64,000 nt of DNA from a bacterium (GTDB lineage: Bacteria > UBP14 > UBA6098 > B30-G16), in assembly GCA_021162205.1 (NCBI GenBank), contig JAGGZE010000100.1:587-64586 (forward strand). Direction: 5' to 3'. Position numbers and translations under genes: made by a program. Below the pieces are notes generated by a model that was not told where the DNA came from, did not search any database, and was given only the letters and a program-made list of their open reading frames with translations. Position 1 is the first letter of the stretch. Each line of letters starts with the position of its first letter. Shown one piece after another: positions 17,951-54,269 of this stretch.

Positions 17951-18754
17951 ATGAAAATCGCATCGTTTTTGATAGGGATATGTATTATATTTGCAGGGAC
18001 GATTTTTGCTGTGCCTTTTGGAAATCCCGCCGACCTTCCACCGAAAGGCAAAATCGAAATATCCGCGAATGTCTCGAAACAATTCCTTTTCACAAGAAAC
18101 GATGCATACTCGAATAAATATGTCGCACATCAACTATTTTTGAAATTGGGTTATACGCCATTTAAATGGATTATGTTGAGCGGTTATCTCGGTGGCTCCG
18201 ATGCCGACTGGCATTGGAAACCGAATCAGATTCCCGATGAAATATTTCTCGATGGAAGCTGGGAACTCACTCCCGGCGCTGAAATTAAAATTCTACCGCC
18301 TGTGAAATTCTCTGGTGGAGGATTTAAGTGGCATATATTTGCCGAAGCGAAATATCTATTTTTACGAAGTCGCTATCCTGAATATACTTTACCAAGCGGT
18401 CTATGGAGATTGAAAATGATATCGAAAATTAATCAATTCGAGATGGGTGGTTTTGTTGTAGGATATTATCGAAAATTCGACATATCCGTATATGGCGGGC
18501 TATGTGGAAGATATGTCTCGGCAGATGCGGTTTATACTGCTACTTCATTTCAAGGCTCTGTTTATAAGGATGTTATGATGATGGGAAGTTCGTTCGGCAA
18601 CCAGAGTATTTTGACTATGGCATTTTTCCCGATTATTGGATTGAATTGGCATTTATCGGATAATTTGGCATTGGATTTCGAGGCGAGTCTGCTGAATTTA
18701 GAAAAATCGGGACCTTTGGTCGGTTTGTCATTGGGAATTTCTAATTATAAATAA
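17951..18754 (+). CDS. Hypothetical secreted protein, possibly a small outer-membrane beta-barrel.
   Basis: N-terminal signal peptide MKIASFLIGICIIFAGTIFA, alternating hydrophobic/polar strands, and an RBS 'aaggatgg'. Confidence 0.4.
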   Translation: MKIASFLIGICIIFAGTIFAVPFGNPADLPPKGKIEISANVSKQFLFTRNDAYSNKYVAHQLFLKLGYTPFKWIMLSGYLGGSDADWHWKPNQIPDEIFLDGSWELTPGAEIKILPPVKFSGGGFKWHIFAEAKYLFLRSRYPEYTLPSGLWRLKMISKINQFEMGGFVVGYYRKFDISVYGGLCGRYVSADAVYTATSFQGSVYKDVMMMGSSFGNQSILTMAFFPIIGLNWHLSDNLALDFEASLLNLEKSGPLVGLSLGISNYK

Positions 18755-18986: not shown

Positions 18987-21374
18987 ATGTTTAATTCCCG
19001 GAATAAATTCATAGTTTCGATTATTTTCATAATCGGTTTTTCGGTTCTCTGTGCGAAAAACTCGGATTATTCGCTCTGGCTCGAACTCACACCCGAAAAT
19101 TCTCGGCAGATGGCGCAATGGGCTGAATCTGAATATGATGGGAATAATCTCGACAATGCGATTCGTATTTATAAAACTTTACTCGATAATGAGAATGTCG
19201 ATGTGCGGAATTGGTCTGCACTTTGGCTTGGAATAATCGATTCATCCTTTGCGAAAGATATAGATTTTTTACCGAATTCAGATTGGGGAACTTTTTTCTG
19301 CGCGGTTAAAATTAAAAAAAATAATCCCGACAGTGCATTGACACTTCTGTCGCAAATTGTCGATTCATCGAAACAGGATATCGCAATTTTGCTCGCTAAA
19401 TATTGGATTGGAATAATATATCGGGAAAGTGAGATGGCTTTCCGAAAATGGACAGAAATTTTAGATGAATATCCCAAAAATTTTCTCGCTGGTGAATTGT
19501 ATTATCGGCTCGGTAAAATTCGATTCGATTCTGGAGATTATGTAGGAACATCAAATTTTCTTTCGCAGGCAATCGATTTTTATAATTCGAGTCTCTGGAA
19601 AGATAGGCAGTGGTGGTCCGATGAGGCATATTATCTGCTCGCAGTGTCGGAGATACGGCAGAATAATCTCGATTCTGCATCTGCGGTTTATAATAAATTC
19701 GATTCTGGATTTAATGAGAACAAATATCTGTCTCGCATCGGGATTTTGCTTTCGGCTTATGGTGACAATCCCGAATCGGCACTCGACCTCGACAGTCTTC
19801 CGCCATCGGTTAAAACCGACCTGCTTATGCGTGGTGCCTGGTCTGCGATGGATAGAAAAAAATACCGCAAAGCCATGCACAATTTTTTAGATGCTTATTC
19901 TATCGAGCAATCCGACGATGCGGTTATTTTTGCAGCGGAATGCGCATATAAATTGAAAGATTATGTGACCGCAGAGACATTGTATCAAAAAATTGCAGAT
20001 GCTCGATTGAAAAAATATGCACAATGGGGACTCGGATGGACAGAATCGAGATTGGAAAGTTATGCGCAGGCTCGGGAAATTTGGAGCGGTTTGCTCGATG
20101 ATAGCACATTCACCGACGATGCCGAATTTGCGATTGCGAAAAGTTATTATTATCAGCGTTCGCTCGATTCCGCTCAGATAAAATTTGTGGATTATATTCA
20201 AAATTTCACTATTCATTATAACGAGGCATTATTTTTGCTTTATTTTTCGCAGATGGAAAATGGCGATACTGCAAAGGCAATCGAGACAGCGATTTCATAT
20301 CTTCGGAAATATCCATCGGGCAAAAAAAGTGAGTTATTGGCATACAATGCCGCAACCGCTATGTTCGAGCGCGGCAGTTTCAGTGCTGTAGTAGATTGGG
20401 TGGACAGTTTTTCTATTTCGTTCGATAAAGAATTAGGCGATTCACTCGTTTTACTGGCGGAACGAGCCAGATATAAGCTCGGCGATTATAACGACCCGAT
20501 TCAGATACTCACAGGTTTTATCGAGCGTAGACCTAATAGTCCATTAGGACCGCAGCTTGCCGTTAATATGGGAATGCAATTCGAGCAAGTTCATAAATGG
20601 CAGGATGCTATCTATGTATATTCGAAGGCGAAAGAATCGACGCTTCCAGGGGATACTGTATGGTGTGAGGCAATGGTCGGTATTATTCATTCCGCACTCA
20701 ATATCGGCGATACAGCGGTTGCAGGCAGCGCACTCGTATCATTATCTGCCGATGGTGAAATGCCCTGGAAAGCACTCGGGAAAATCTATTATGCAAAATG
20801 GGTATGGAAAAATTTGGGAAACTCCGAGCAGGCGATTTCTCTCTACGACGATGTTATAAATTCGAAAGATGCTGGTGTTCTTGTGGATTCGGCGACACTC
20901 GACCTTGCCGGGATTTATATCTCGGCGCAAATGTTTCCCGAAGCTCGCAAAATTCTCGAAGATAGATGGAACTCGATTACTCACGACGATACTATGGCAA
21001 TGGTCTACATAAAAGTGATAAGCGCGGCTATATGGGAATCTGGCGAGCCCGATTCCGCTGTGGATTTTGCGATAAATTATGCCGACAGTGCGGTTCTACC
21101 TTGCGATGTTTTATATGGAATTGGTTCGCTTATCACAACGGATGGCAGGTCGGAACTTGCCGGCAAAATTATGGATAAAATGAATCTCTACGGTTGCTCA
21201 AATTTACCGGCGCCTTTTTTGCTGCAAATGGGTGAATATATGATTCAACTCGAAAGAATCCCGGATGCCTGCAGCTTATTCGCGATAGTTTTATCATCCC
21301 ATTCCGATGATTCGCTTGGTGAAGTTGCCCGTGAAAGACTCAAAGTTTTTTCCACGCAAAAGGATACACAATAG
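18987..21374 (+). CDS. Tetratricopeptide (TPR) repeat protein with signal peptide.
   Basis: 795 aa with a hydrophobic N-terminus and repeated TPR-like 34-aa helical units (W/Y...LG......A......A). Confidence 0.6.
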   Translation: MFNSRNKFIVSIIFIIGFSVLCAKNSDYSLWLELTPENSRQMAQWAESEYDGNNLDNAIRIYKTLLDNENVDVRNWSALWLGIIDSSFAKDIDFLPNSDWGTFFCAVKIKKNNPDSALTLLSQIVDSSKQDIAILLAKYWIGIIYRESEMAFRKWTEILDEYPKNFLAGELYYRLGKIRFDSGDYVGTSNFLSQAIDFYNSSLWKDRQWWSDEAYYLLAVSEIRQNNLDSASAVYNKFDSGFNENKYLSRIGILLSAYGDNPESALDLDSLPPSVKTDLLMRGAWSAMDRKKYRKAMHNFLDAYSIEQSDDAVIFAAECAYKLKDYVTAETLYQKIADARLKKYAQWGLGWTESRLESYAQAREIWSGLLDDSTFTDDAEFAIAKSYYYQRSLDSAQIKFVDYIQNFTIHYNEALFLLYFSQMENGDTAKAIETAISYLRKYPSGKKSELLAYNAATAMFERGSFSAVVDWVDSFSISFDKELGDSLVLLAERARYKLGDYNDPIQILTGFIERRPNSPLGPQLAVNMGMQFEQVHKWQDAIYVYSKAKESTLPGDTVWCEAMVGIIHSALNIGDTAVAGSALVSLSADGEMPWKALGKIYYAKWVWKNLGNSEQAISLYDDVINSKDAGVLVDSATLDLAGIYISAQMFPEARKILEDRWNSITHDDTMAMVYIKVISAAIWESGEPDSAVDFAINYADSAVLPCDVLYGIGSLITTDGRSELAGKIMDKMNLYGCSNLPAPFLLQMGEYMIQLERIPDACSLFAIVLSSHSDDSLGEVARERLKVFSTQKDTQ

Positions 21375-21573: not shown

Positions 21574-22203
21574 ATGGAAATCGACGATGTAAATATTTAT
21601 GTGATTTTAGATATTTCGCTAATCGAAAAATTCGACAAGAATCCTGTCGATGTTATGAAATCGGCGAACGATGGTGGTGCGAAAATATTTCAGTTGCGAT
21701 ACAAAGGCGCGACCGAGGGCGAGATATACCGAATCGGTGCGGAACTTGCACCTGTGGCAAAAGATTTGGGTGCGATATTTATAATAAACGATAGTCTATC
21801 TGTTGCTATGGCGCTTAGAAGCGATGGAGTTCATCTCGGCGAGGACGATTTGCCGATTTTCGCAGCGAGAAAAATTGCAGGGAATAATTTTATTATCGGG
21901 GCATCGGCGAGTTCTGTCGAGGTGGCAATGCAAGCAGAAAAAGAAGGTGCATCGTATATTGGCTATGGTGCGGTTTTCTCGACTACTACGAAAAAAAACA
22001 CTTGCCCGGGTTCTATCGATGGTTTGAAACAGGTTATGAAAGCTGTGAATATTCCAGTGTTTCCACTCGGTGGAATAAATGCGGATAATGCCGATAAAAT
22101 TGCTAAAATCGGCTGCCGAAAAGTCTGTATCGCATCGGGGATTATCGCACAACAAAATGTGAAAATCGAAACCGAAAAAATTATTGCAATTTTACAGGAC
22201 TGA
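21574..22203 (+). CDS. thiE: Thiamine-phosphate synthase.
   Basis: 209 aa with ThiE motifs 'GVHLGEDDLP', 'IIGASASSVEVAMQAEKEGASYIGYGAVFSTTTK' and 'PLGGIN'. Confidence 0.85.
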   Translation: MEIDDVNIYVILDISLIEKFDKNPVDVMKSANDGGAKIFQLRYKGATEGEIYRIGAELAPVAKDLGAIFIINDSLSVAMALRSDGVHLGEDDLPIFAARKIAGNNFIIGASASSVEVAMQAEKEGASYIGYGAVFSTTTKKNTCPGSIDGLKQVMKAVNIPVFPLGGINADNADKIAKIGCRKVCIASGIIAQQNVKIETEKIIAILQD

Positions 22204-22208
22204 CGATT

Positions 22209-25200
22209 ATGCGAAATTTATCGATAATCATAATATTTTTGATTTCTACAGGAATTCTGACGGCACAGGATACTATTCCGCCAAATGTCTATTTCTACTA
22301 TCCGGGCGACTATGCTTTTTTCTCTTGCGATTCGGGCGTAATCATTTTCAAAATTTTGGATGAAAGCCCAATCGACTGGATGACGAGCCATCTCGATATG
22401 TTTGTTAATGCAAGTCCACCTGTGGTTCTTGCGGAAAGTCTGGCATCGCCACTCGATTCATTTTACTATTTTTATCTTCCACATTCGTTTTCGGATGGCG
22501 ATTCGGTGCGGCTTTCTTATCTGCCGATATACGATATCTGGGGCAACTGGCGAAATGCTAATTTTTATTTCTATGTCGATTTGAGTCCACCCGAAATTTC
22601 ACTTATAACTCCTTCCGAAGGCACACTGCCGAATATGAATCTTTTTTTCAGAGCGCAAATAGCCGATGAAATGGCGAGAATAAATCTCGACTCGTCGAAT
22701 GTTTCAATCGATGTTTTCGGCAACAATAATTGGAGTAGCACTTTTCAATTTTCATCTGGTTATGTGATATATTTTGGCGATACGCTTTTAGTCGATGTCA
22801 ATTCGCTCGGTGACATAAGCGGTGGCGATACGATTCGAATATGTGTCGATGCCGGAGATAATGCAGTCGGCTGCGGAGCAAATAGAACCGATACCTGTTT
22901 CACATACGATTTACCATACACTCCGCCCGATATCGAACTTGTATATCCTTTCGATGGAGCGGTTTTGGCTCCACACTGTGCGGATTCTATAATTTTTATT
23001 GTGAACGATGTCGATTCTATCGCATATATTTGGATTACAGTAGGAGTGGATACATATACAATTACCGACCCCGAAATTTCAATTTCGGGAGATACGGTAT
23101 TATTCAATACTTCATCGGCATTCGACGACGATGAATACTATAATATCATAATCCACTGCACCGATATTTACGATATAAGCTCACAATATTCGTTCGGAAT
23201 TTGGTTCGACACATCGTCGCCGTTTATTGTAAGCATAACGCCTGCATCGGGTTCGCTAATCACCGATACGATAATTACAGTAGGTTTTCAGATGGTCGAT
23301 TACATTGCTGGAATCGACCCTGGTTCGATTGCACTCACTATCGATGGCGCTCCCTCGGTATTCGATTTCGATTCGACTACTGGATTTATGTCGTTCGACC
23401 TTATATTCGATGACGTTATCGATACTTTAGATGTTATTCTGAATATTTGCATAAATGGCTCTGATAATCCCGATTATTGCACAAATAATTTCGATTCCTG
23501 TTTTGCACTTCATTATTACATCGATATACGCAGTCCCGAATTTTTTCCGCCAAATGGTTCGGTAACCGCCTGCATAGACCAATCACTTGCAGCGGCACTT
23601 TATTCACTCGGTGGTATAGATTCCGAAACTGTGATTCTGACTTTAATTAATATGACCGATGGTGGAACGATAGCCGATATTCAACTGTCCGACCCGCGTT
23701 TCAGCCATACGAGAACACCTGTGCCGCCATTCGGAGTGATGGATAGTTTCTTTTTCGAGCCCACACCGGGTTTTTGGCCCGATGGCAAATATATCCAATG
23801 CAGTATTTACGGATATGTTCATCATTCCAGCCATCCTGGATATTATACATATCCATGGTTTTTCTATACCGATTTTTCGCCGCCATATCTCGAATCGATT
23901 TCGCCTGCGAATGGTTCTGTCGAATTTACACCGCCCGATACGATGTATTTCCGATTCGGTGATGAAACCGCAGGAGTTCTCGAAACAGCGATAGCTTGTT
24001 CGCTGCTATTCAATGGAGTTCCATTCAGCATACCATTCGGTGCACTCGGACGAATTTCAGGGGATACTGTAGCGCTATCACTTGCAAACTATGGTATAAA
24101 TCTTTCGGGATGCGATTCGATTCGATTTTGCGCATCCGCAATCGATGCTGTCTCGCCTGGTTTTTGTGGACCGAATTCTATGCACGATTGTATAGGTTTC
24201 TCATTGGATTGCACATATCCATCGGCGGAATTTATTTCACCAGAACCTAATATCGTTTTATCCTGTTCGTTGCAAACTATTGTGTTTGCTCTCGATGAAG
24301 ATGTAAATCTCGATTCGTCGAGTATCGTGATTGTGATAAATAATGACACGATTCCATTTTCCGATGACCGCTCGACGATTTCTCCAACTGGCACATTGAC
24401 ATTCTCACCGAATACTTTCTGGAACGATGGCGATACGATTAGCGGATATTTACTCGGTTTATGCGATTATGTCGGTAATTGCAGTGAAACTGTGCCGTTT
24501 CAATTCGTCTTCGATAACTCGCCACCGAACATCGAAACGATTTCACCTTTGCCGGGAGCGATTGTTATCGATTCGCTTGCACCTATCGTTTTGCAAATTT
24601 ACGATGATTTCACATCGCTTTCAAGTTATGGAATTTTAGGCGATTTTGGTGGTTCGTTCACCACTGTTGCTGGAAGCACTTATGTTTTCGACCCGAGTGG
24701 GATTACTGTGCTCGGTCCCGAGGATACAGTTTTCGTCGAGGTTTGGGCGGCGGACAGTGCCGAAAGCTGCGGTTTCAATGCCGATACATTCGAATATTGG
24801 TTCGTTGTCGATGCGGTCGGTCCGAGAATCGTTGCAATCGATTCTGTTATAGGAGAATTCACATCCTGCGACAATCGATGTATTTCATTTCTATTCGATG
24901 ATTTTCTCGGATTGGATACTTTCGCTGCCGAGGTGTATTCATCTAACGAGTCTGAAACATTGAATTTCGCATCGCCATCGTTGGAAATAACCGACAGTAG
25001 TATTGCATATTGTCCATCGGAACCGTATGCCGATGGTGAAACAGTTACTGTTGCACTAATTTCCGCACCGGATATCGCAGGAAATCCATTATTTGCGGAT
25101 AGTATAATAGAAAGATTTATAGTCGATTTATCACCGCCATATTTTGAAAGTATTTCACCGATGTCGGGCGATACACTTACCACAACTGTACCGAATGTGA

Positions 25201-27602
25201 TTTTTACCGTTCACGATTCGATTTCGGGAGTTAATTGGGAAAACTGCTCTCTCGAGGTGGATTGCTCGTTCGACGATACAATCTTGCATTCGAGCGACGA
25301 TGGTATTTTTATTTCTGGTGATACTATCGAAATTTCGTTCAGCGATATTGGAATATTTTTAACGGGTGGCGATTCGGCTCGAGTCTGCATTTGGTTGAGC
25401 GATGCGATATTCGATACGATTGCAGGATGTTTATCGCACAGTATCGATACTTGCACGATTTTCTATATCGATGCTAGCCCGCCGACAGTCGCTCCTGCTC
25501 GTCCAGGAAATGGTTCTATTACATCGTGTATCGACCAAAGCATAGATTTCGTTCTCGCGGACAGCGAAGGAGTAGATTGGGACACTGTGGTAATCACCGT
25601 TAATGAAGATACATTTAGCACAGACAGTATCGAACTAATGCATATAATTTCATCCGATACGATGCGCTTTATTCCATCCGCGCTTTACGATAACGATACT
25701 GTCGATGTTTGCGTGATTTATGCAAGAGATACACTTATGAATGAAATCGAATTCCCGGTATGCTGGACTTTTTTCATCGATACTATTTCGCCTGTGATTG
25801 TGGATGAATATCCCGCCGATGGTGCTATTATAAATAATCCATTGCCATCGATATGGGCAGATGTCGATGATACGATTACGGGATATGTTCATCTCGATTC
25901 GTTCTCGATAGATGGCGTATGGCATATCGAAACAGGTGAGTTAATCGATACTTTTAGTTATTCGGTTTTCGATTCGCTTGCGGATGGCGAACATACTGTT
26001 TGTATCTCGATTTACGACCAGCCGGATTTTTGCACTCCCAACGATACGATTTTATGCTGGAGTTTCGATGTGGATAACACATCGCCGACTGTTAGCGTAA
26101 TTCCCGAAAGTATTTTAGTCTCATCGTGCGATTCGATGGAATTTTCATTCACCGCAACCGATATAGACAGTGTTATACTGGAAAATATTTCGAGCGACTG
26201 CGATTTCACATATATAGTCGATTTCCACGATGACACGACATTAAATATCGATGGTTTTGTGTTCGCTCCCGCTGTCGATGGCACTGTTTGGGTCGAAATC
26301 ACTATAGCGGATAGTCTCGGCAATCGGTCTATCGATTCGATATTTTTTGCATTCGACCGAACACCGCCGGTTGTTTCATTTGTCTCGCCGACCGATGGCG
26401 AAACGATTTTTACGCAATCGCCGACAATAACAGTTTCGGCATCGGATGAAAACGGTATCATTCCCGACAGCGCATATTTTGTCATCGGAATCGATACTTT
26501 TTATTACGATTCGGGCGAAATCGATTTCAGCGCCGGCAATTTCGATATAGACCTTTCGGGAACGAGTTATGAATTGCCCGAAAGAGGATTCTCCACAATA
26601 ATTTTCGGCGGTGTTTTCGATACGATATCGGGAAATTTCGATTGCTCTATTTATTTTGCCGAACTCGAATCGATAACAGTTTTCATCGCAGATGACGATA
26701 CTATGCCACCGATTATTTCATCTCCCGAATATGATTCCGCATGGTGCGGCGGAACTGTTTTTCCGCAGTGGACAATCTATGACGAACAGTCTAATGTGGA
26801 TTCTGCATTCTTAATCGTCGGCGAATATAACGATTTTTCGATTGTGGAAACTCTTGCATTAAGTGAAATTTCCACTCGAATATATCGACCCGATACCGCA
26901 TTGTGGTTTCTGACAGATACACTTTGGTTCGTGGTCTGTGCAACAGATTCCGATAACGATTTCGGTATCGGCGACGATGAAACCACCGGCTGCGGCGATA
27001 CGATATTTATAGTCTGCCGAAAACCTTATATATCGATTATAAACGACACACTCGATTTCGGTGAGGTTTGTCTTCTCGACAGCGCGAGAATATTACAGTT
27101 CGGTATAGCGAACCCTACAGGAATCGGTGTAAATGTATTTTTTGAACAGTCCGGCGATTCCGTTTTCAGTCGAGTTCAAGATTCCGCAGAAATAGAATCT
27201 AACGATACGATATTGTTCTCGATTGTTTTCACACCATTCGAGGAGCAATTGTATTCGGGTGAAATAATCGTAAATCTCGATGAAAATGTAGATACAGTGT
27301 ATCTGTTTGGTATCGGAATTTTATGCCCACTCGGTTTTTCTGTCGAACCGCTCGTTATCACTCCAAATGGCGATGGTTTCTACGACTCGACTGTTTTTAC
27401 ATTTCCATTGCGAAGCGATAACAAGGTCGAAATTTTCGCTAAAAATTTATCGCTAACAAGAAAAATCGAATCGGGTGATATTAGAATAATTTGGTATGGC
27501 ACGGACACTAATGGCAACCCCTGTCCACCGGGACCATATATTTTTATTGCGAAGCAAAATAATAAAATACTCGGTAAGGGAATTATTGTGATTGTGAGAT
27601 AG
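22209..27602 (+). CDS. Large secreted repeat protein with a C-terminal T9SS type B (gliding-motility-associated, TIGR04131-like) sorting domain.
   Basis: Signal peptide, then about 12 tandem ~110-aa modules each starting 'D.SPP.I..ISP..GS'. The C-terminus 'ITPNGDGFYDSTVF...IIWYGTDTNGNPCPPGPYIFIA...GKGIIVIVR' matches the 'FTPNGDGxND...WdGt.nG...GtYfY...LlR' type B CTD pattern. Confidence 0.7.
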   Translation: MRNLSIIIIFLISTGILTAQDTIPPNVYFYYPGDYAFFSCDSGVIIFKILDESPIDWMTSHLDMFVNASPPVVLAESLASPLDSFYYFYLPHSFSDGDSVRLSYLPIYDIWGNWRNANFYFYVDLSPPEISLITPSEGTLPNMNLFFRAQIADEMARINLDSSNVSIDVFGNNNWSSTFQFSSGYVIYFGDTLLVDVNSLGDISGGDTIRICVDAGDNAVGCGANRTDTCFTYDLPYTPPDIELVYPFDGAVLAPHCADSIIFIVNDVDSIAYIWITVGVDTYTITDPEISISGDTVLFNTSSAFDDDEYYNIIIHCTDIYDISSQYSFGIWFDTSSPFIVSITPASGSLITDTIITVGFQMVDYIAGIDPGSIALTIDGAPSVFDFDSTTGFMSFDLIFDDVIDTLDVILNICINGSDNPDYCTNNFDSCFALHYYIDIRSPEFFPPNGSVTACIDQSLAAALYSLGGIDSETVILTLINMTDGGTIADIQLSDPRFSHTRTPVPPFGVMDSFFFEPTPGFWPDGKYIQCSIYGYVHHSSHPGYYTYPWFFYTDFSPPYLESISPANGSVEFTPPDTMYFRFGDETAGVLETAIACSLLFNGVPFSIPFGALGRISGDTVALSLANYGINLSGCDSIRFCASAIDAVSPGFCGPNSMHDCIGFSLDCTYPSAEFISPEPNIVLSCSLQTIVFALDEDVNLDSSSIVIVINNDTIPFSDDRSTISPTGTLTFSPNTFWNDGDTISGYLLGLCDYVGNCSETVPFQFVFDNSPPNIETISPLPGAIVIDSLAPIVLQIYDDFTSLSSYGILGDFGGSFTTVAGSTYVFDPSGITVLGPEDTVFVEVWAADSAESCGFNADTFEYWFVVDAVGPRIVAIDSVIGEFTSCDNRCISFLFDDFLGLDTFAAEVYSSNESETLNFASPSLEITDSSIAYCPSEPYADGETVTVALISAPDIAGNPLFADSIIERFIVDLSPPYFESISPMSGDTLTTTVPNVIFTVHDSISGVNWENCSLEVDCSFDDTILHSSDDGIFISGDTIEISFSDIGIFLTGGDSARVCIWLSDAIFDTIAGCLSHSIDTCTIFYIDASPPTVAPARPGNGSITSCIDQSIDFVLADSEGVDWDTVVITVNEDTFSTDSIELMHIISSDTMRFIPSALYDNDTVDVCVIYARDTLMNEIEFPVCWTFFIDTISPVIVDEYPADGAIINNPLPSIWADVDDTITGYVHLDSFSIDGVWHIETGELIDTFSYSVFDSLADGEHTVCISIYDQPDFCTPNDTILCWSFDVDNTSPTVSVIPESILVSSCDSMEFSFTATDIDSVILENISSDCDFTYIVDFHDDTTLNIDGFVFAPAVDGTVWVEITIADSLGNRSIDSIFFAFDRTPPVVSFVSPTDGETIFTQSPTITVSASDENGIIPDSAYFVIGIDTFYYDSGEIDFSAGNFDIDLSGTSYELPERGFSTIIFGGVFDTISGNFDCSIYFAELESITVFIADDDTMPPIISSPEYDSAWCGGTVFPQWTIYDEQSNVDSAFLIVGEYNDFSIVETLALSEISTRIYRPDTALWFLTDTLWFVVCATDSDNDFGIGDDETTGCGDTIFIVCRKPYISIINDTLDFGEVCLLDSARILQFGIANPTGIGVNVFFEQSGDSVFSRVQDSAEIESNDTILFSIVFTPFEEQLYSGEIIVNLDENVDTVYLFGIGILCPLGFSVEPLVITPNGDGFYDSTVFTFPLRSDNKVEIFAKNLSLTRKIESGDIRIIWYGTDTNGNPCPPGPYIFIAKQNNKILGKGIIVIVR

Positions 27603-27673
27603 AATTTATTCTTTATTTTAATATAATTCGATATTTTATAACTCGATTAAATTATAAACTCGGTTTTTTATTT

Positions 27674-30379
27674 ATGAAAAAATACTTGATTTACATCGTT
27701 GTTTCGACAGGACTTATATTGGCGGGCGAATTTCAATGGAATGCAAAAAATACAGCCATCGCAGATTGCGGATTTTCGATTCCACTCGATGCAGGCAGCA
27801 TATTTTACAATCCCGCTTTCGCTGGAGCATTCGGTAGTGGAGTTCTTTCTGCCGGTTATGGAATTCCATTCGCGGGTATCGAAAGTTCCGCAAAATCGGG
27901 TTATCTTGCATACACTCGACCATTGGGATGGAGTGCAGGACTCGCAGTCATCGGGAACTATGAGGATATATCGGCGTATAAAATGTTTAGAATCGGCGGC
28001 GATTTTGCATATCGAATCGCGTTGGCGGGAACATTATCGCTCGGTATGGGAATCGATTGGCTTCAGCGAAGTTATGATATTCCAGCCGATGACCCACTTC
28101 ACGGCAGAGGAAATCCCTCGGCGGTTTCTTTCGATGCTGGAGTGTTATGGCAAATGTTGGACAAATTTGCGTTCGGTCTATCCGCGATGGATATAAACGA
28201 GCCGAATCTCGCAATCGAGGAAAATGCACCCGCATCGAAATTGCCTAAAAGAATCGGCGCAGGAATTTCATATAAATTCACCAACTATTTCATTCCCGAA
28301 CTTGCGATAGTATATCGTTCTTTCACAATCGGCGAAAAATCCAATCCCGAATATATACTCGGTTTCTATGGTGGATTGAAATCCAATACATTGTTCTGGC
28401 GTGGCGGAATTTCTCCCGATATCGCCGATATCGGAGTTGGATGGCATTTGAATTCTGTATTCGGCGGACTCGATTTCGACTATGCTTTCGGATTGCCACT
28501 ACAAAGTTCTCTGCGTTCAGCAGGACAGACACAGCATTATTTCGGTGTAACATTTTACGGCAAACAGGTTCGTGTTCGTAAGGGCGACCTCGAAATTCGG
28601 GATTTGCAAATATCGGGGGAATTTAAGGCGAAAAAGCCGCTTAAAATTTCCGCGACAGTCATAAACGATAGTCGGATAAAAATCACATCGGTTCCGTGTG
28701 CACTCACTGTCTATGATGGCAAAAAATGGAAAATGATTTATCCTACAAAATATATCGATTCACTCGCTTCAAAACAGTCTGTCGAAATGGAGTGGAACTG
28801 GAAACCTAAAATCGAGGGTAAATATACGATTAGAATTACTGCAGATGACGATGGCAATGAAATTCCCGATATTTCGGGGCATATCGATGAAAAAAATGAA
28901 AAGAACAATCAGGTCTCCAAAAAGATAGTGATTTCTGCATCGGATACACTTGTAATCGAGCCTAAAATTTCGACATTATCGGCGACTCAATTGATAGTCA
29001 AGGTAGAGGAGGAACCCGTTGTTCCTGTTGTATTTTTCCCTGCTGGTTCGGCAATGTTCGACAAACGGGGCAGTCAATTTCTCGATGTCCTCGCCGATAG
29101 ACTTTCACAAAATCCCGATGCTATATTGACAGTTTATGGATATTACGATGTTTCAGATGGTGACAAAGACCCGCGTTCCCTTGCTGATGCCCGCGCCGAG
29201 ACTGTGAAAAATAATTTACTCGCTTATAATACAAAACTTGCAAATAGAATTTATACCGTTGATAATTATGATGTGCAAAAATCCCGTCTTACAAGCAGAT
29301 ATGTTAAAAACGACCCGAGAATTAATCAGGAAAACCGAAGAGTCGAATTTTCGGTTTCGGTGAGAAGTGATATTGCTAAATTTTCTGAAAATGATGCAAT
29401 TCGACTTTTACAAAATAACGACGATTTCCTTTTAGTGATAATCGGGAGGCGAACTAAATCGGAAAATGCCCGTGTAGGGTTTGCTCGAGCCGATTCTGTC
29501 AGAAAAAAAATATTGTCGAAAAATCCACATTTGCATAATAGAATTGTGGTAGAGGAAGAAATCGGCGAGGATAGGAATATTATTTTTGAAATCGACCCCG
29601 ATGGCGTAATAGTTCGTCCACGAGAGCGATATCCTGTTTCGGAACAATGGAAAGACCCAGAACCTGCTCGAAATGTAATCGAAATTCGACGCAAAGGGTT
29701 TGAAAATATTCATCGATGGAAAATTGTTGTGGAAAGTGAAGATAGAAATCTCGTTCATACAATAGCAAATGGCTCCGGGATACCGCCCGATTCTATTGTG
29801 TGGGATTGGTCTGTCGGTAAAGATAGATTTTTAGCTCCGAATAACGAGTATGGATTACATATAAAGCTCGAGACCGCCGAAGGAAATCGAGAATATTTTG
29901 CAAATGAGAAAATCCATTTAGTTCCAAGGCAGAAAATCGAGGCGATTGAAAATATGCTATTAGTCGAGTTTGTATTCGATGAAAGCGAACCGCTGTCGAA
30001 ATATCTCGAACGCAGACTTTTCAGTTTTGCAGAAAAATTCGTTGCGAGAGTCGATTCGGGTTATTCACAAAGTGCCGAAATACAGGGACATACCGACAAT
30101 ATCGGTTCCGAACGCAGAAATACCGAACTATCATCTCAACGAGCAAACCGCGAATATTTTATTATGCGGAAATTTATCGCATATTTTGCCGATGTCCCTG
30201 TCGATAAACTCGATAAATGGCTTACCGAACACGATTGTTCACTTTCATATAAAGGATATGCATCTGAAAAACCGTATACACTTCGAGGAAAAATCCTTGG
30301 CGATAATAGTTCTTCGTATGGACGAAATATAAACCGCCGGGTTACTCTCGAATATCATTACGAAAAAGATTTGAAATAA
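27674..30379 (+). CDS. Outer-membrane protein: N-terminal PorP/SprF-like beta-barrel (~290 aa) fused to two OmpA-like peptidoglycan-binding domains.
   Basis: Signal peptide; the N-terminal motif 'SIFYNPAFAGAF' resembles the conserved PorP/SprF 'NPAYAG' start. The C-terminal half has two OmpA-C-like domains ('QGHTDNIGSERRNTELSSQRANR...NRRVTLEY' and 'NRRVEFSV'). It lies immediately downstream of the type B CTD cargo gene. Confidence 0.55.
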   Translation: MKKYLIYIVVSTGLILAGEFQWNAKNTAIADCGFSIPLDAGSIFYNPAFAGAFGSGVLSAGYGIPFAGIESSAKSGYLAYTRPLGWSAGLAVIGNYEDISAYKMFRIGGDFAYRIALAGTLSLGMGIDWLQRSYDIPADDPLHGRGNPSAVSFDAGVLWQMLDKFAFGLSAMDINEPNLAIEENAPASKLPKRIGAGISYKFTNYFIPELAIVYRSFTIGEKSNPEYILGFYGGLKSNTLFWRGGISPDIADIGVGWHLNSVFGGLDFDYAFGLPLQSSLRSAGQTQHYFGVTFYGKQVRVRKGDLEIRDLQISGEFKAKKPLKISATVINDSRIKITSVPCALTVYDGKKWKMIYPTKYIDSLASKQSVEMEWNWKPKIEGKYTIRITADDDGNEIPDISGHIDEKNEKNNQVSKKIVISASDTLVIEPKISTLSATQLIVKVEEEPVVPVVFFPAGSAMFDKRGSQFLDVLADRLSQNPDAILTVYGYYDVSDGDKDPRSLADARAETVKNNLLAYNTKLANRIYTVDNYDVQKSRLTSRYVKNDPRINQENRRVEFSVSVRSDIAKFSENDAIRLLQNNDDFLLVIIGRRTKSENARVGFARADSVRKKILSKNPHLHNRIVVEEEIGEDRNIIFEIDPDGVIVRPRERYPVSEQWKDPEPARNVIEIRRKGFENIHRWKIVVESEDRNLVHTIANGSGIPPDSIVWDWSVGKDRFLAPNNEYGLHIKLETAEGNREYFANEKIHLVPRQKIEAIENMLLVEFVFDESEPLSKYLERRLFSFAEKFVARVDSGYSQSAEIQGHTDNIGSERRNTELSSQRANREYFIMRKFIAYFADVPVDKLDKWLTEHDCSLSYKGYASEKPYTLRGKILGDNSSSYGRNINRRVTLEYHYEKDLK

Positions 30380-30401
30380 TAACTGCTTGAGAGGATAAAA
30401 A

Positions 30402-31709
30402 ATGAAAACTATACCGATTATAATTATAATCGCATCGTTATTCGGTTCGATTTGGGGATTTGGACTATCATTTAAAGATGACGGCTCGGTCGATACCAAA
30501 ATTGTCGCTGTCGTCGGGAATAAACCGATACTTTCCAGTGAACTCGACCAGATGCTTTTGACATCGGCAGTGGAAATACCGAAAGATTCGAGCGATGTCT
30601 ATAAACTTTACGGGCAGATACTCGGCGAACTAATCGATGAGGAATTGGTCTATCAATCGGCACTTGCCGAGAGTATCGAGGTCGATGAGGATATGCTTAA
30701 ACAGGAATTTTCTGCGAGATGGGATTCATTCGTAGTTAGATTCGGCACAGAGAAAGCACTCGCCGAGACTCTCACACAGGAAGGTATGTCGATTGTATCT
30801 TTCAAGAAGAAAGTGAAAAATCAGGTTAAAATGGGACTTCTAAAACAGATGTATATCCAGAAACATATAACCGAGACAGAGGTTTCCGATGAGGAATTGA
30901 GAAAATTTTACGACGATTATAAGGACAGTCTCGGCGAATATCCCGAACAGATAGAATTGAGTGCGATACTAATATCTTTGCCATCGGATTCGATTATTTT
31001 TGAGCAAACTCGAAAAGTAGCGCAAAAAATCTATGATACACTTGTTAGTGGAATCGAATTTAATCGGGCGGTTCAGAATTTTTCGCAGGATGAAATCACA
31101 ATGAAGGATAATGGCGAACTCGGTGAATTTTCAATCGATGATTTACCGCAGAATTTTAAGAATGCCATCGATAAATTAAAAACCGGTGAATATTCGAAAC
31201 CTGTTAAAAGCGAAAAGGGTTATCATATCTTAAAACTTATATTCCGCAAGAACAACAAGGTGAAACTTGCGCATATATTTGTAGAATTACCTATTCGTAA
31301 TGATTTTGCCAAGCAAATTGCTAATGCAGTATATGATTCTGCCCGCAATGGAACGGATTTCCAGACATTGCTTATTCATCACACCGCAGATAGTTCACTT
31401 CTCGCTAATAATGGCAAACTCGGGACATTTCCAGCGACAGCACTTCCACCGGCGCTCGAAACGATTGCGGATTCACTCGGCGCAGGAACAGTGATTCCAC
31501 CACTTCAACAAAATGGGCAATGGGCTGTTTTCAGAATAGATAACATAATTCCCGAAGAACCGATGACATTGGATAAACACGCTAACTTCATCAGACAATT
31601 GGCACGCCGAAAAAAGTTTTCTGATAAATTAAGCCGCTTAATCGAGAAACTGCATCAGCAAATCTATGTCGAGGTGAAGGATAAAAAAATCGCACCGTAT
31701 GTGCGTTGA
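30402..31709 (+). CDS. surA: Periplasmic chaperone/peptidyl-prolyl cis-trans isomerase, SurA-like with two parvulin domains.
   Basis: Signal peptide, SurA-N-like helical region, and two PpiC-type segments ('GELGEFSIDDLPQNFKNAIDKLKTGEYSKPVKSEKGYHILKL' and 'NGKLGTFPATALPPALE...'). Confidence 0.65.
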   Translation: MKTIPIIIIIASLFGSIWGFGLSFKDDGSVDTKIVAVVGNKPILSSELDQMLLTSAVEIPKDSSDVYKLYGQILGELIDEELVYQSALAESIEVDEDMLKQEFSARWDSFVVRFGTEKALAETLTQEGMSIVSFKKKVKNQVKMGLLKQMYIQKHITETEVSDEELRKFYDDYKDSLGEYPEQIELSAILISLPSDSIIFEQTRKVAQKIYDTLVSGIEFNRAVQNFSQDEITMKDNGELGEFSIDDLPQNFKNAIDKLKTGEYSKPVKSEKGYHILKLIFRKNNKVKLAHIFVELPIRNDFAKQIANAVYDSARNGTDFQTLLIHHTADSSLLANNGKLGTFPATALPPALETIADSLGAGTVIPPLQQNGQWAVFRIDNIIPEEPMTLDKHANFIRQLARRKKFSDKLSRLIEKLHQQIYVEVKDKKIAPYVR

Positions 31710-31722
31710 AAAATATCGACAC

Positions 31723-31741
31723 ACACCCTTCGGGTGTTTTT
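31723..31741 (+). terminator. Intrinsic terminator-like hairpin (acaccc-ttcg-ggtgt followed by TTTTT) after surA. It also forms the first module of the mosaic repeat.
   Basis: Perfect 6-bp GC-rich stem followed by a T-run, 14 nt after the stop codon. Confidence 0.6.
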
Positions 31742-32066
31742 AGTGCGTTGCGTTTCTTCCGACAAAGTCGAAATTCATTGCAACGCCATCGTTATCAAAG
31801 TTTCCGAACCCATTAAAAAGAGCCGTAGGCTTCGCCTGTTTTTATTGCGTTGATTTTTTCTGAACAGGGGATATAGTTGCCCATTGCCCGATAACGAATT
31901 GTAGGGGCGAACGGCGTTCGCCCAATAGAATAAGGGCGTATTCGATATGCTCCTACACCGTGTTTTTAATTGGTTGAAATGTTATTTAATTGAGCTGGCA
32001 TTGCAGGGAATTGTTCCGCTTTTGTGGAACAAGGAAAGCAATGCGAAGAAAACAGGCGAACGCCTG
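31723..32066. repeat. Mosaic intergenic repeat locus A: one forward unit (31723-31851) and one inverted unit (about 31905-32066), tail-to-tail. The inverted unit abuts the tRNA-Ser 3' end.
   Basis: Shares with loci B-D the modules hairpin+T-run, outer stem gcgttgc/gcaacgc enclosing a short palindrome, and an AT-rich box '..attaaataacatttcaacc.attaaaaa' followed by a GC hairpin. In the inverted unit the hairpin caggcgttcgcctg+TTTT lies directly 3' of tRNA-Ser. Confidence 0.75.
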
Positions 32067-32503: not shown

Positions 32504-35500
32504 ATGAATAAAATAGGAAGAATACTGATTGTAGGTGGTGGAATAGGAGGAATTCAGTCCGCATTGGACCTTTCTTCATCGGGTTATAAAGTTTATCTGC
32601 TCGATAAAAAATTATCTATCGGTGGAGCTATGTCTCAATTGGACAAGACATTCCCTACGAACGATTGTTCTATGTGTATACTTTCTCCCAAAATGGTCGA
32701 TGCCGGCAGACAGTTGAATATAGAGCTTCTTACCAATTCCGAGGTATTATCTGTCGAGGGCGAGCCCGGGAATTTCAAGGTAAAAGTATTGAAGAAAGCT
32801 CGGTATGTATCGTTCGATAATTGTAAGGGTTGTGGAGACTGCACTGAAGCCTGCCCTGTTTCGCTTCCCAATCCTTATGAGGAAATGCTCGGGACGAGAA
32901 AGGCGATATGGCGACCATTGGAACAGGCAGTCCCATCGGCATTCGCTGTCGATAAATTGGGTATCCCTCCTTGCAGGGCGAGATGTCCTATTCACTTAAA
33001 TGCCTATGGGTATGTGATGGCAGCAAAAGTGAAAGAATGGGAAAGAGCACAGGAAATCGTAAGAAAGGATAGAGATTTTGTATTCGCTGCCACTGCTGCA
33101 AGGATATGCACTCATCCCTGCGAATCGGAATGCAAAAGATGCGAGGTAGATGAACCTGTATCTATAAGAGGTATTAAAAGATGGATTGTCGATTGGGAAT
33201 TTGAAAAATATGGCGGTCCAAATCTACCGATAGAGATAGCGGAAGAGAAAGATAAGCGTATTGGAATTATAGGTGCGGGACCTGCTGGACTCACAGCCGC
33301 TTTTCATCTTCGCAAAAAAGGTTATCGAGTCGAAGTATTCGAAAGTCTGCCAGCTGGTGGTGGTATGCTTCTTGCGGGTATTCCAGCATACAGACTTCCC
33401 AAAGATATTTTGAAAAAAGAAGTGGAAATAGTAGAAAAATCGGGTGTCGATATAAAGTATAATACCAGCATAGGAAAGGATATACAGTTCGACGAGTTAC
33501 TCGGGAATTTCGATTCGGTGTTTATCGCTACAGGAGCGCATAAATCGAGAGGTATGAAAATACAAGGTGAAGGACTAACAGGTGTTCATCATGCAGTGCA
33601 TATATTGAGAAAAATAAATTTAGGCGAGGAAGTAAAATTAGGGAAAAAAGTAGTTGTAGTAGGCGGAGGAAACTCTGCGATGGATGCAGCGAGAAGTGCA
33701 TTAAGGTTGGGTTCCGATGTAACGATATTGTATAGAAGGTCGAGACTCGAGATGCCGGCGATAGACGAGGAGATAGAGGCAGCGATTTCAGAAGGCATAA
33801 ATATCGAATTTTTAAGGAATCCTGTCGAATTTATAGGGGAGAATGGTAAATTAAGCAAAGTGAAAGTTATCGAGATGGAATTGGGTGAACCCGATGAATC
33901 TGGTAGAAGAAGACCTGTGCCTATATCGGGGAGTGAATATGAACTACCTGCCGATGATGTTATGCTCGCCATTGGTGAAAAACCCGAGCTTTCGTTCCTA
34001 AATAGTTCAAATATCGATATAACAGATTGGGGAACTATAAAAGCGGATGAGCTTACACTTCAGACATCGAATCCCAAAGTATTTGCAGGAGGCGACACTG
34101 TTACGGGACCCGCTTCATTCATAGATGCGGTTGCTCATGGTATGAGAGTAGCGGAATCCATCGATAGATATATATCAGGGAGAGATATTAGAGAAGGCAG
34201 AGAGGATGAACTGCCATTTAAGAGTGATTTAGTGGGCGATAAAGAAAGAGCATACCAAAAAGAGAGAATGCATCAGCCCATAGTTCCTGTCGCAGAAAGA
34301 ATAAAGGATTTCAGGGAGGTAGAATTAACTCCTAATGAAGATGATGTATCCGAGGAAGGGAAAAGGTGTATCGAATGTGCGCACTGTTCAGAATGTATGC
34401 TTTGTATGGAAGCTTGCGAGCCAGATGCAATTTTACATGATATGATATCGGAGGAAGTCGAACTGAATGTGGGCTCGATTATTCTTTCACCCGGTTACGA
34501 AGAATTCGCTGCCGAGAAAATTACTGAATTCGGTTATGGAAGATTCCCTAATGTTGTAACCTCGATACAGTTCGAGAGAATCCTATCTGCATCTGGACCT
34601 TATGGTGGAAATATAGTAAGGCCATCGGATAATGAACATCCCAAAAAGATTGCGTGGATTCAATGTGTCGGTTCGAGAGATAAACACAATGAATATTGTT
34701 CCTCTGTATGCTGTATGTATGCGGTTAAGGAAGCGGTAATTTCCCGAGAACATGCAAGCGATACCGATGCCACAATATTCTTTATGGATATAAGAGCTTA
34801 TGGAAAAGATTTCGATAAATATATCGATAGAGCAAGGGATGAATACGGTGTTAAGTTCGTAAGGTCGAGAATAGCAAAAATAGATGAAAATCCCGATACC
34901 AAAAATCTTATTATAAGATACGAGGCAAATGGCGAATTAAAGAAAGAAGAATTTGGACTTGTTGTGCTTTCTGTCGGACTTGCACAGCTTCCAGATAAGG
35001 ATGATATTAAGGAAAAATTTGGTATCGAACTAAACGAGTTCGGTTTCGCAAAAACAGATACATTCTGCCCTATATGCACCACCAGAGATGGCATATTTGT
35101 ATCTGGTGCATTTCAATCTCCAAAAGATATTCCAGAAACGGTAGCACAGGCATCGGGTGCAGCGGCAATGGCAGGAGGAGTATTATCCGATGTCAGATGG
35201 ACAGCAACCGAGAAAAAAGAGTATGTGGATGAAAAAATTGTTAAAAATGAAAGACCCAGAATCGGAGCATTTATATGTCGCTGTGGAATAAATATAGGTG
35301 CTTATGTAGATGTGCCAGCAGTTGTGGAATATGCAAAAACACTTCCCGGTGTTGTATATGCGGAAGAAAATCTATATACTTGTTCTCAGGATACACAGGA
35401 AAAAATAAAGGATATGATAAAAAAACATAATCTAAATAGAGTAGTTGTCGCATCCTGCACTCCGAGAACTCACGAACCGCTTTTCCAAGGGACTATAAGA

Positions 35501-36961: not shown

Positions 36962-37373
36962 ACCTAATATAATCGCTTTTCTGTGCAATTGGTGCAGTTA
37001 TGCGGGAGCCGACCTTGCAGGCGTTTCGAGATTCCAGTATCCAGCAAATCCCAAGGTGGTAAGGGTCCCCTGTTCGGGCAGGATAAACCCTATGTTTATT
37101 GTGAAATCGCTTTACGAAGGATTAGATGGTGTTTGGGTATCGGGATGTCATCCGGGAGATTGCCATTATAATACAGGGAATTATTATGCAAGGAGAAGAT
37201 TTGCCCTGTTAAAGAATATGCTTTCACATATCGGATTCGAAGAGGATAGGACATTGTTCTCCTGGGTATCGGCATCCGAGGGAAATATATTCGCAGACAA
37301 AGCGAAAGAGGTTACAGCGAGAATAAAGAAACTCGGTCCGCGAAAAAAATTACTAAAAAACAGAGATATTTGA
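36945..37373 (+). CDS. mvhD: MvhD/FlxD-like [2Fe-2S] protein (methyl-viologen-reducing hydrogenase delta-subunit family).
   Basis: 'IIAFLCNWCSYAGADLAG...VRVPCSGRINP...GVWVSGCHPGDCHY' matches the MvhD signature. The ATG at 36945 is preceded by an AGGAGA RBS; the ORF track starts at an upstream GTG at 36927. Confidence 0.75.
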   Translation: MDKEYEPNIIAFLCNWCSYAGADLAGVSRFQYPANPKVVRVPCSGRINPMFIVKSLYEGLDGVWVSGCHPGDCHYNTGNYYARRRFALLKNMLSHIGFEEDRTLFSWVSASEGNIFADKAKEVTARIKKLGPRKKLLKNRDI

Positions 37374-37390
37374 ATAAATTGGAGGTTTAA

Positions 37391-38287
37391 ATGGCAGATA
37401 AAATTGTAGAAAATATTAGGAAAGAAGCGAAAAGGATTCTCGAAGAAAAAATAGTGGATATAGTAATCGGTTTTGAGAAAGGCACACTTCCCTATACTGC
37501 ATCTCCTGTATTTATCGAAAATCCCGACGATGTAGATAAACTTATTTGGAACAGATATTGTCATAATAATCTCGCTGTTTATCTAAGGAATTTCCCCGAT
37601 AAAAAAATCGGCATTATTGTTAAGGGTTGCGACAGTCGCTCGATTGTTGCATTGATGGCAGAAAAACAGCTTACACGGGAAAATATTTATATAATCGGTG
37701 TTCCCTGTGAAGGAATGCTCGATAAGAATAAATTACTCGAGGAGTTCGGTGATAATCCACCGATAGAAGTTAAGGAAGAATTTCTCTATCCATCCTGTCA
37801 GTATTGCGAACATAAAAATCCTGTGATATATGATTTTTTGACAGGTGAACCTGTTCAGGAAAAAGAAGAAGAGCCATACCCGGATGTAGTCGAATTTGAA
37901 AAGAAAACATTAGATGAGAGATGGAAATATTTTCAAGAAGAAGCATCGAAATGTATTAGGTGTTATGCTTGCCGTCAAGCTTGCCCTATGTGTTATTGCG
38001 AGGAATGTTTTGTCGATACAAATTCTCCGAAATGGCTCGACCCGGGAATTGACCTTCCAGATTTACAGGTATGGCATATTATTAGAGCATACCATCAAGC
38101 AGGCAGATGTGTCGATTGTGGCGCTTGCGAAAGAGCTTGCCCTATGGATATAAAAATTTTATGGTTGACCAGAAAATTGAATAAAGATGTAAGAGATTTG
38201 TTCGAGTTTGAAATAGGAATCGACCCCGAAAAAGTTCCTCCACTCGGAACATTCTCATTATACGATAAAGAGGAGTTTTTAATATGA
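37391..38287 (+). CDS. Iron-sulfur protein with 2x[4Fe-4S] motifs (FlxC/FrhB-like electron-transfer subunit).
   Basis: 'CIRCYACRQACPM' and 'CVDCGACERACPM' ferredoxin motifs. A GGAGG RBS precedes the start and the stop overlaps the next start (ATGA). Confidence 0.55.
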   Translation: MADKIVENIRKEAKRILEEKIVDIVIGFEKGTLPYTASPVFIENPDDVDKLIWNRYCHNNLAVYLRNFPDKKIGIIVKGCDSRSIVALMAEKQLTRENIYIIGVPCEGMLDKNKLLEEFGDNPPIEVKEEFLYPSCQYCEHKNPVIYDFLTGEPVQEKEEEPYPDVVEFEKKTLDERWKYFQEEASKCIRCYACRQACPMCYCEECFVDTNSPKWLDPGIDLPDLQVWHIIRAYHQAGRCVDCGACERACPMDIKILWLTRKLNKDVRDLFEFEIGIDPEKVPPLGTFSLYDKEEFLI

Positions 38288-43158: not shown

Positions 43159-43303
43159 ATTACTAAATTTTTTACAGGGAGAGAGGCATTGCCTCTTCTT
43201 ATTCCACAAATTTATTTTATAATCAATTTTCAAGTTATACTTGACTTTTTTTAATAGCAAATTATTTTATCAACTTAAATTTGAAAACAGGAGGAATTTT
43301 TTA

Positions 43304-54169: not shown

Positions 54170-54269
54170 TAGTTCCTCCTCGGATAATATTATCACCTAT
54201 ATTCATTATATAAATAAAATATGAAAAGTCAACAGCTAATAACAAATAAATTTAAAATAGTATTTATTT

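Follow-up and report, generated by a model that had tools for sequence, protein, structure and literature searches.

In Porphyromonas gingivalis, the surface protein PG1035, which carries a C-terminal domain (CTD) of type B for the T9SS (type IX secretion system), binds PorP; PorP in turn binds PorE, which attaches to peptidoglycan through its OmpA_C domain (PMC9143113, PMC7192894, PMC12773672); the structure of this OmpA_C domain has been reported (PMC7192894). Five operons of Flavobacterium johnsoniae each contain, besides genes for a type B substrate and an SprF-like carrier, one for a PorE homologue, and the authors speculated that the products form static, wall-anchored complexes, while mobile adhesins such as SprB have no PorE-like partner (PMC12618676). 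The C-terminal tail of SprF is periplasmic and forms disulfide bonds with the moving GldK track (PMC12635249). Here we describe two adjacent genes in a 64,000-nucleotide stretch of DNA (contig JAGGZE010000100.1 of assembly GCA_021162205.1, positions 587 to 64,586; the whole stretch is called the window below) from an uncultured, Zixibacteria-like lineage. They encode a giant secreted repeat protein, the cargo, and a barrel protein with a long C-terminal extension, the anchor. We consider it likely that the two are a type B cargo and its cognate carrier barrel, the latter tethered to peptidoglycan and fusing the roles of PorP and PorE in one chain. The pair and its parts are laid out as follows.

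22209-27602, + strand: cargo, a secreted repeat protein of 1,797 residues (Big_5, 36.1 bits; orthologues)
27324-27602, + strand: candidate C-terminal sorting domain of the cargo, residues 1706-1797, ending KGIIVIVR (sub-threshold CHU_C and TIGR04131 matches)
27674-30379, + strand: anchor, an open reading frame (ORF) of 901 residues (PF11751, CARDB and OmpA in Pfam)
27758-28567, + strand: anchor residues 29-298, an N-terminal segment that holds the NPA motif, then a 14-strand outer-membrane beta-barrel of PorP/SprF type (PF11751; AlphaFold2 (AF2) model)
28577-28936, + strand: anchor residues 302-421, a CARDB beta-sandwich, presumed to be a periplasmic spacer (PF07705; Foldseek)
29009-29362, + strand: anchor residues 446-563, first OmpA-like domain (GYYD ... 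LADARA ... ENRRVEF; PF00691 stretch 454-529)
29387-29596, + strand: anchor residues 572-641, a short, degenerate OmpA-like alpha/beta module (AF2 model; cross-match of hidden Markov models (HMMs))
29627-29953, + strand: anchor residues 652-760, second Ig-like beta-sandwich with a WDW motif (AF2 model; relatives)
29954-30376, + strand: anchor residues 761-901, second canonical OmpA_C-like domain (GHTDNIG..RN.ELS..RA ... NRRV; PDB match; Foldseek)

The initial annotation of this DNA, made from the letters alone, had read the N-terminal part of the anchor as a PorP/SprF-like barrel and pointed to the string FYNPAFAGA. The string is indeed present, at residues 44-52, and its N46 and P47 do not vary among 33 members of the family. 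A Pfam scan places PorP_SprF (PF11751) on residues 43-292, where it scores 56.2 bits (gathering score 22.3), and the AF2 model computed from the 33-sequence alignment (mean pLDDT 84.6) has 14 strands within residues 55-298. The proposed reading of residues 20-290 is thus supported as a predicted barrel and, by the Pfam threshold, as a match to PorP/SprF. This model supersedes an earlier, weak AF2 run with seven sequences (mean pLDDT 62). Foldseek comparison of the barrel with the PDB returned the 14-strand barrels FadL and OmpG, with target-normalised TM values of ~0.4-0.66, and the top 50 matches contained no solved PorP/SprF chain. Long loops alternate in the model with turns of 3-6 residues. 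These loop lengths, the even number of strands and the published topology of SprF together suggest that the C-terminus of the barrel, like its N-terminus, faces the periplasm, and hence that the ~600-residue extension is periplasmic as well. No lipobox Cys is found in the signal peptide of the anchor as read from the sequence. Two relatives of the anchor are already named PorP/SprF by NCBI automatic annotation, and others are called TraF, OmpA family or hypothetical.

The extension had been credited with two OmpA-like domains. Fused OmpA-like domains are present, and the search with PF00691 gave 57.9 bits against a gathering score of 27.2, in two stretches, but the actual content is larger: over the ~600 residues after the barrel, which are predicted to be periplasmic, the AF2 layout runs from a CARDB domain through an OmpA-like domain, a short OmpA-like module and a second, Ig-like beta-sandwich to a further OmpA-like domain, i.e. 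three OmpA-like modules in all. The CARDB domain is matched by PF07705 at 31.1 bits against 22.7 (residues 305-415) and by the structures 2kl6 and 3idu in Foldseek (target-normalised TM 0.73-0.81). The first OmpA-like domain finds the PDB sequence 9uu2_A (E 8.2e-5), and its R507 and E553-N554-R555-R556, together with the whole ENRR-E motif at 553-558 that includes the latter, are invariant in the 33 sequences. An HMM of the short module (residues 572-641) cross-matches this first domain in relatives. In the alignment of the 33 sequences, W710 of the second Ig-like domain is invariant and W712 nearly so.

The last domain matches the C-terminal domain of OprF (5u1h) in sequence, with E 1.3e-5 and with the GHTD/RA and NRRV motifs aligned, and in Foldseek it matches 5u1h and 3td3/3td4/3td5 with target-normalised TM values of 0.70-0.76; these targets include the OmpA-like domain of Acinetobacter baumannii in complexes with diaminopimelate and with a pentapeptide. 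Residues G805-H806-T807-D808, R823 and N887-R888-R889-V890 are invariant in the 33 sequences and align to the motifs of OprF and Omp38. The Asp and Arg of GHTD ... RA correspond to the diaminopimelate-binding residues of the 3TD3-3TD5 structures. Judged by these motifs, the OmpA_C-like domains of the anchor would bind peptidoglycan. The candidate identification of the anchor as PorE itself was rejected, the PorE model NF052230 reaching 16.5 bits against a cut-off of 600, on the OmpA_C part only, and the protein having neither TPR nor propeller nor lipobox Cys. By its sequence, the anchor appears to work like the OmpA_C end of PorE and yet is not PorE.

The cargo begins with a signal peptide at residues 1-19 (MRNLSIIIIFLISTGILTAQ), read directly in the sequence, and it is the repeat protein that it had been taken for. 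A self-seeded jackhmmer search delineated at least 12 Ig-like repeats of 80-115 residues each over residues 21-1481 (nt 22269-26651), the database being a single sequence, for which only the bit scores (29-155) are meaningful. The iterative profile alone detected these repeats, as self-BLAST of the cargo at E <= 0.01 did not find them. Its composition is strongly acidic (D 10.5%, K 0.5%) and rich in Cys, of which there are 45.

Whole-protein scans of the cargo with Pfam and NCBIfam did not detect a CTD, which was seen only on scanning the last 99 residues alone. The alignments of this tail to the type B models are near full-length and end at the last residues of the protein. All six orthologous cargo tails match TIGR04131 (best E 2.2e-6) and CHU_C (best E 1.1e-5), whereas the type A models TIGR04183 and PF18962 match none of the six at E <= 1, and FlgD_ig gives partial matches only. 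A profile of the six tails, run against 5.8 billion proteins, yielded just two matches, given the word filter and E-values scaled to the size of the database; it retrieved a CHU_C-annotated protein of 156 residues ending KGII-LVR (E 3.4e-4). Comparison of the cargo tails by hhalign with this CHU_C-annotated protein, P0129, gave a probability of 97.7%, and the orthologous cargo proteins of three loci (L011, L014 and L015) have CHU_C matches on record with E <= 1e-5. The orthologues range down to 26-28% identity over ~1,700 residues, and all cargo tails share the skeleton TPNGDG-ND ... IF/IY ... WDG-D--G ... G-Y-Y ... G-I---R-stop. From these comparisons we conclude that the cargo tail is, in all likelihood, a divergent type B T9SS sorting domain.

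The full-length, 901-residue anchor family is rare, a word-indexed search finding seven clusters, all from uncultured organisms. An exhaustive search of 1.84 billion representatives with the barrel profile returned 876 relatives at E <= 1e-3, and the best 150 of these 876 comprise 25 proteins of 790-1,000 residues, 62 of mid length (380-700 residues) and 63 stand-alone barrels of ~300 residues. OmpA was found in 24 of these 25 long relatives, PorP_SprF in 21 and CARDB in 20; scans of 61 of the 62 mid-length proteins gave LysM in 13, TPR in ~12, OmpA in 8 and CarboxypepD_reg in 2. HMMs built locally from the family recover a collinear six-module layout in 24 relatives longer than 780 residues, two of them without CARDB.

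The initial annotation had suggested a survey of whether such fused barrels recur downstream of type B CTD genes in related genomes, and they do. A cargo gene directly precedes the gene of the fused barrel, in the same orientation, in 10 distinct loci (the window, L008, L004, L001/2, L005, L003/7, L013, L011/12, L014 and L015, where L001/2, L003/7 and L011/12 each count as one). The gap between the two genes is -4 to 71 bp across these loci, or 255 bp by the ORF call in L008, and the identity of the anchor among paired loci falls to 28-29%. Barrels with other extensions have comparable neighbours: a CHU_C protein is encoded directly upstream of a barrel with LysM in L017, of a barrel with TPR in L018 and of a barrel with a single OmpA domain in L020, and in L021 (barrel with LysM) the order is reversed, the barrel coming first and a 1,977-residue CHU_C protein following directly downstream with a 4-nt overlap. 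The CHU_C matches of L017, L020 and L021 are marked as weak in the record. Several relatives of the anchor are labelled Zixibacteria or Zixiibacteriota, and the closest are from metagenome-assembled genomes (MAGs) of Guaymas-type hydrothermal sediment; L020 and L021 come from MAGs labelled Endomicrobiales and Candidatus Firestonebacteria. For the PNPase of the window, the best relative with a name is 72% identical and bears the label Zixibacteria, and the next ones, at ~56%, bear those of Calditrichaeota and KSB1, which places the window in an uncultured FCB-superphylum lineage close to Zixibacteria.

A 2.8-kb contig (L006, QMSR01000199.1) with a cargo-tail and anchor pair was deposited as 'Thermoplasmata archaeon', a label that most likely reflects a binning error. 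Just upstream of the thiE-cargo-anchor triad of L003, at 1-3276, lie two more genes of ~930 residues with CARDB/OmpA matches, which may be paralogous anchors without an adjoining cargo gene. The anchor clusters P0142 (969 residues) and P0159 (914 residues) each have members reported on a longest contig of 443,113 bp, and some genomes may carry two paralogous fused anchors.

The domain content and folds of the two proteins, together with the conservation of the binding motifs and of the pairing, are the ground for the following proposal. The genes at 22209-27602 and 27674-30379 would encode a cognate pair, of which the cargo would be exported by Sec and then cross the outer membrane by means of its C-terminal type B-like sorting domain. 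The anchor, through its 14-strand barrel of PorP/SprF type, would hold it on the surface of the cell, a step that we infer from homology and conserved gene adjacency. The C-terminus of the barrel would lie in the periplasm and lead into the CARDB/Ig-like spacers and the OmpA_C-like domains, and these would pin the complex of cargo and carrier to the cell wall, making it a static structure on the surface. A single chain would in this way take on both the role of PorP, as carrier and anchor of type B cargo, and the wall-binding role of PorE.

The proposed arrangement resembles the PorP-PorE-PG1035 system of P. gingivalis in having a surface protein bearing a CTD of type B on a 14-strand PorP barrel and a periplasmic link to a peptidoglycan-binding, OmpA_C-like domain. 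There, however, wall binding falls to a lipoprotein of its own (TPR, beta-propeller, CRD and OmpA_C) bound non-covalently to PorP, whereas the OmpA-like domains of the window are within the barrel polypeptide itself, placed after CARDB and Ig-like spacers and with neither TPR nor beta-propeller. The F. johnsoniae operons, e.g. Fjoh_3952/3951/3950 (PMC12618676), share with the proposed pair a carrier encoded directly downstream of the cargo and a wall binder in the same operon, but they consist of three genes rather than two, belong to Bacteroidota rather than to an uncultured Zixibacteria-like lineage, and yield a static complex that is still a proposal. With SprB-SprF (PMC12635249) the likeness would be that of a giant adhesin, built of repeats and ending in a type B CTD, and a downstream barrel of the PorP/SprF family with a periplasmic C-terminal tail. 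The tail of SprF is short, and its CxC motif is bonded to the moving GldK track, giving a mobile adhesin; the anchor has instead ~600 residues of wall-binding domains and no CxC motif, which predicts an immobile anchor. By analogy, the pair in the window would belong to the 'static' class, a single chain uniting carrier and wall binder.

Several observations weigh against this proposal. In the window protein itself, the cargo tail scores 20 bits against TIGR04131 (cut-off 35; model positions 6-83 of 85) and 20.9 bits against CHU_C, PF13585 (cut-off 27; positions 6-83 of 86), so that the initial claim of a type B CTD is supported as to its type, the best match being near full-length and type B, never type A, but not as to the curated cut-offs, which the scores do not reach. 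The naming of the barrel fares similarly: it has the Pfam match and the modelled fold in its favour, but the NCBIfam model for PorP/SprF, TIGR03519, gives 59.6 bits, which is far ahead of the PorV/PorQ model (18.2 bits) and below its own cut-off of 90.55, a cut-off reached by none of nine relatives scanned. The wider barrel clade has comparable scores on PorV/PorQ models, and some of its members score higher there (P0140, at 98.3 bits, passes the cut-off of 90). For this reason 'PorP' names the nearest family and is no proof of orthology; 'T9SS carrier-type barrel, nearest to PorP/SprF' would be the safest name. In one locus, L016, a small cold-shock gene precedes the fused barrel, and the cargo-like genes lie downstream of the barrel. 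T9SS core genes (SprA/Sov, PorV and GldK-N) were seen neither in the 64-kb window nor in ~20 loci, though they were not searched for in these genomes. Finally, T9SS-dependent export, carrier function, binding of the CTD to the barrel, periplasmic topology and peptidoglycan binding are all inferred.

The initial annotation had placed a second protein, with the distinct type A CTD, at 51728-54169.

51728-54196, - strand: separate protein (813-822 residues) with a type A T9SS CTD (TIGR04183; FlgD_ig)

The protein does reach the curated cut-off of the type A model TIGR04183 (24.2 bits against 23) and that of FlgD_ig (35.8 against 27), but it is on the minus strand and its longest ORF is 51728-54196. 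The further claim that the organism uses both substrate classes agrees with the presence of type A and type B-like signal domains, and it is from these signal domains only that such use is deduced. In related loci, genes near the module (L014 12774-16784, L015 14450-16564 and L003 16100-21106) encode a 1,336-residue Peptidase_C25 (gingipain-family) protein and proteins with Por_Secre_tail/FlgD_ig tails. The type A-tailed proteins and the C25 peptidase lend indirect support to a working T9SS in these lineages.

These data can also be read more broadly. One-piece barrels of the PorP/PorV type that combine carrier and wall anchor (OmpA, LysM or TPR) and are paired with type B-like CTD proteins may be the standard in several uncultured phyla, namely Zixibacteria-like lineages and those of the MAGs labelled Endomicrobiales and Firestonebacteria. 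They would then form an old and widespread module that predates, or is independent of, the separate PorP and PorE of Bacteroidota. We offer this only tentatively, as a possible reading that we would not expect to hold. Were it correct, the single-copy, co-inherited, acidic Ig-repeat cargo of 1,800 residues in a thiE operon would belong to the core envelope of the lineage, for example as a surface coat.

We think it unlikely that the CTD-barrel pair is a self-contained surface-display module, independent of the canonical T9SS translocon, in which the barrel or some other route handles the cargo. Such autonomy would explain why the pair occurs in MAGs of phyla without a reported T9SS, since CHU_C-type neighbours of related barrels are found in the MAGs labelled Endomicrobiales and Candidatus Firestonebacteria and we know of no report of a T9SS from either group. 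It would also agree with the lack of sightings of T9SS core genes described above, and the literature that we searched held no paper linking Zixibacteria to type IX secretion. Against it stand the window protein whose type A CTD passes the curated cut-off and the type A-tailed proteins and C25 gingipain-family peptidase near the module in relatives, which point to a working T9SS. Taxon labels of MAGs are moreover fallible, as the archaeal label of L006 illustrates, and the lumen of a 14-strand barrel is too narrow for a folded Ig-repeat protein of 1,800 residues, which counts against an autonomous module.

It is more improbable still that the anchor serves, like OmpA or OprF, as a general tether between the outer membrane and peptidoglycan, with no specific tie to the giant protein beside it and lying next to the cargo through a gene order conserved within a narrow lineage. 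OmpA and OprF classically have this layout of a barrel and then an OmpA_C domain, and the C-terminal fold and binding motif of the anchor match those of OprF and A. baumannii OmpA; the best NCBIfam matches to the extension are generic OmpA-family lipoprotein models, database sources call relatives 'OmpA family protein', and in L016 no cargo gene lies upstream of the fused barrel. However, the barrel of the anchor is of the 14-strand, T9SS carrier type nearest to PorP/SprF and not of the 8-strand OmpA type, its extension has three OmpA-like modules and two beta-sandwiches, and its gene is tightly linked to that of a CTD cargo. This pairing persists at 28-29% identity, recurs with other extensions (LysM, TPR) and with other cargo that shares only the CTD, and is kept in L021 despite the reversed gene order.

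The reading of the pair as a type B cargo on a wall-tethered carrier had initially been extended to its neighbours, thiE and a SurA-like gene, as parts of one module. All four ORFs are present at the positions first given for them, co-directional on the + strand, and the flanking features are the following.

21574-22203, + strand: thiE, thiamine-phosphate synthase (TIGR00693, 167.1 bits against a cut-off of 145.1; PF02581, E 2.9e-50)
30402-31709, + strand: SurA-like periplasmic peptidyl-prolyl isomerase of 435 residues (Rotamase, 100.9 bits; SurA_N_3, 44.8 bits)
~31723-31743, + strand: terminator-like hairpin and T-run, directly 3' of the surA stop codon

The intergenic gaps are short (5 bp between thiE and cargo, 71 bp between cargo and anchor, 22 bp between anchor and surA), no + strand terminator-like site was found in the gaps separating the four genes, and a hairpin with a T-run follows surA; accordingly, the four appear to form a single transcription unit in this genome, with the hairpin as its likely end. 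The place of thiE upstream of the pair is upheld by comparison. In eight distinct loci (the window, L001/2, L003/7, L005, L008, L013, L014 and L015) the cargo has a thiE homologue directly upstream, with a spacing of -4 to 32 bp and with thiE identity down to 37%, and thiE is probably co-transcribed with the cargo. The rationale for tying a cytoplasmic vitamin-synthesis gene to the operon of a giant surface protein is not obvious.

The protein at 30402-31709 is, by its sequence, best called a SurA-like parvulin chaperone, with Rotamase and SurA_N_3 above their gathering scores and the SurA equivalog NF008038 at 86.6 bits, short of its threshold of 394. Its inclusion in the module did not survive comparison. 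The surA gene directly follows the anchor only in the window and in L008, a 78%-identical relative, and is not directly downstream of the anchor in any of L001, L003, L005 and L010-L016. Only thiE-cargo-anchor is conserved, and surA is left outside the module because a different gene follows the anchor in the other loci. That this SurA is a dedicated chaperone of the module is thus very hard to credit: surA does start 22 bp past the anchor gene with no terminator-like site between them and one after it, an arrangement that L008 shares, but the gene after the anchor differs in L001, L003, L005, L010, L011, L013, L014, L015 and L016, and SurA is a general chaperone of outer-membrane proteins.

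Elsewhere in the window, upstream of the module, a 5,920-residue ORF (115-17877) has Big_1/invasin-type Ig repeats, and HMM scans of its tail did not recognise a T9SS C-terminal domain. It is followed by a 267-residue ORF (17951-18754) with a signal peptide and a beta-rich sequence and with no match in Pfam or NCBIfam; for want of any family match it was not callable as a second PorP-like gene. Together these could represent a further adhesin and its small partner in the outer membrane. Between this giant adhesin locus and the thiE-cargo-anchor operon lies a TPR-repeat protein of 795 residues (18987-21374) with only partial YbgF/BamD-like matches. Downstream, at 32504-40071, a 1,485-residue fusion of an HdrA-like and a glutamate-synthase-small-subunit-like flavoprotein is followed by genes for FrhB-like, 4Fe-4S and NAD-binding subunits, and the whole looks like an unusually long oxidoreductase of the electron-bifurcation type. 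On the minus strand at 41599-43260, a single ORF of 553 residues joins a TatD-type DNase domain to an RsmA/KsgA rRNA adenine dimethylase domain.

A description of a PorP-OmpA fusion was not found in the literature that we searched, and to this extent the initial view of the locus as an undescribed variant stands; its three-part logic, however, is already known in the form of separate genes (PMC9143113, PMC12618676). What is new is the fusion, and the principle of a type B cargo, a PorP-like carrier and a PorE-like wall binder is not. How type B T9SS cargo stays on the cell, and whether wall binding of the PorE type is general, is still partly conjecture. In the model organisms, the evidence for a PorP-PorE interaction and for the 'static complex' proposed in F. 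johnsoniae consists of pull-downs and operon structure. A natural fusion, kept together with its cargo over deep divergence and recurring with other wall-binding modules, e.g. LysM, is independent evolutionary evidence that the carrier barrel and the wall binder act together. As a two-gene system it would be simpler for structural or heterologous study, and it extends the pairing of cargo and carrier to uncultured sediment lineages outside Bacteroidota.

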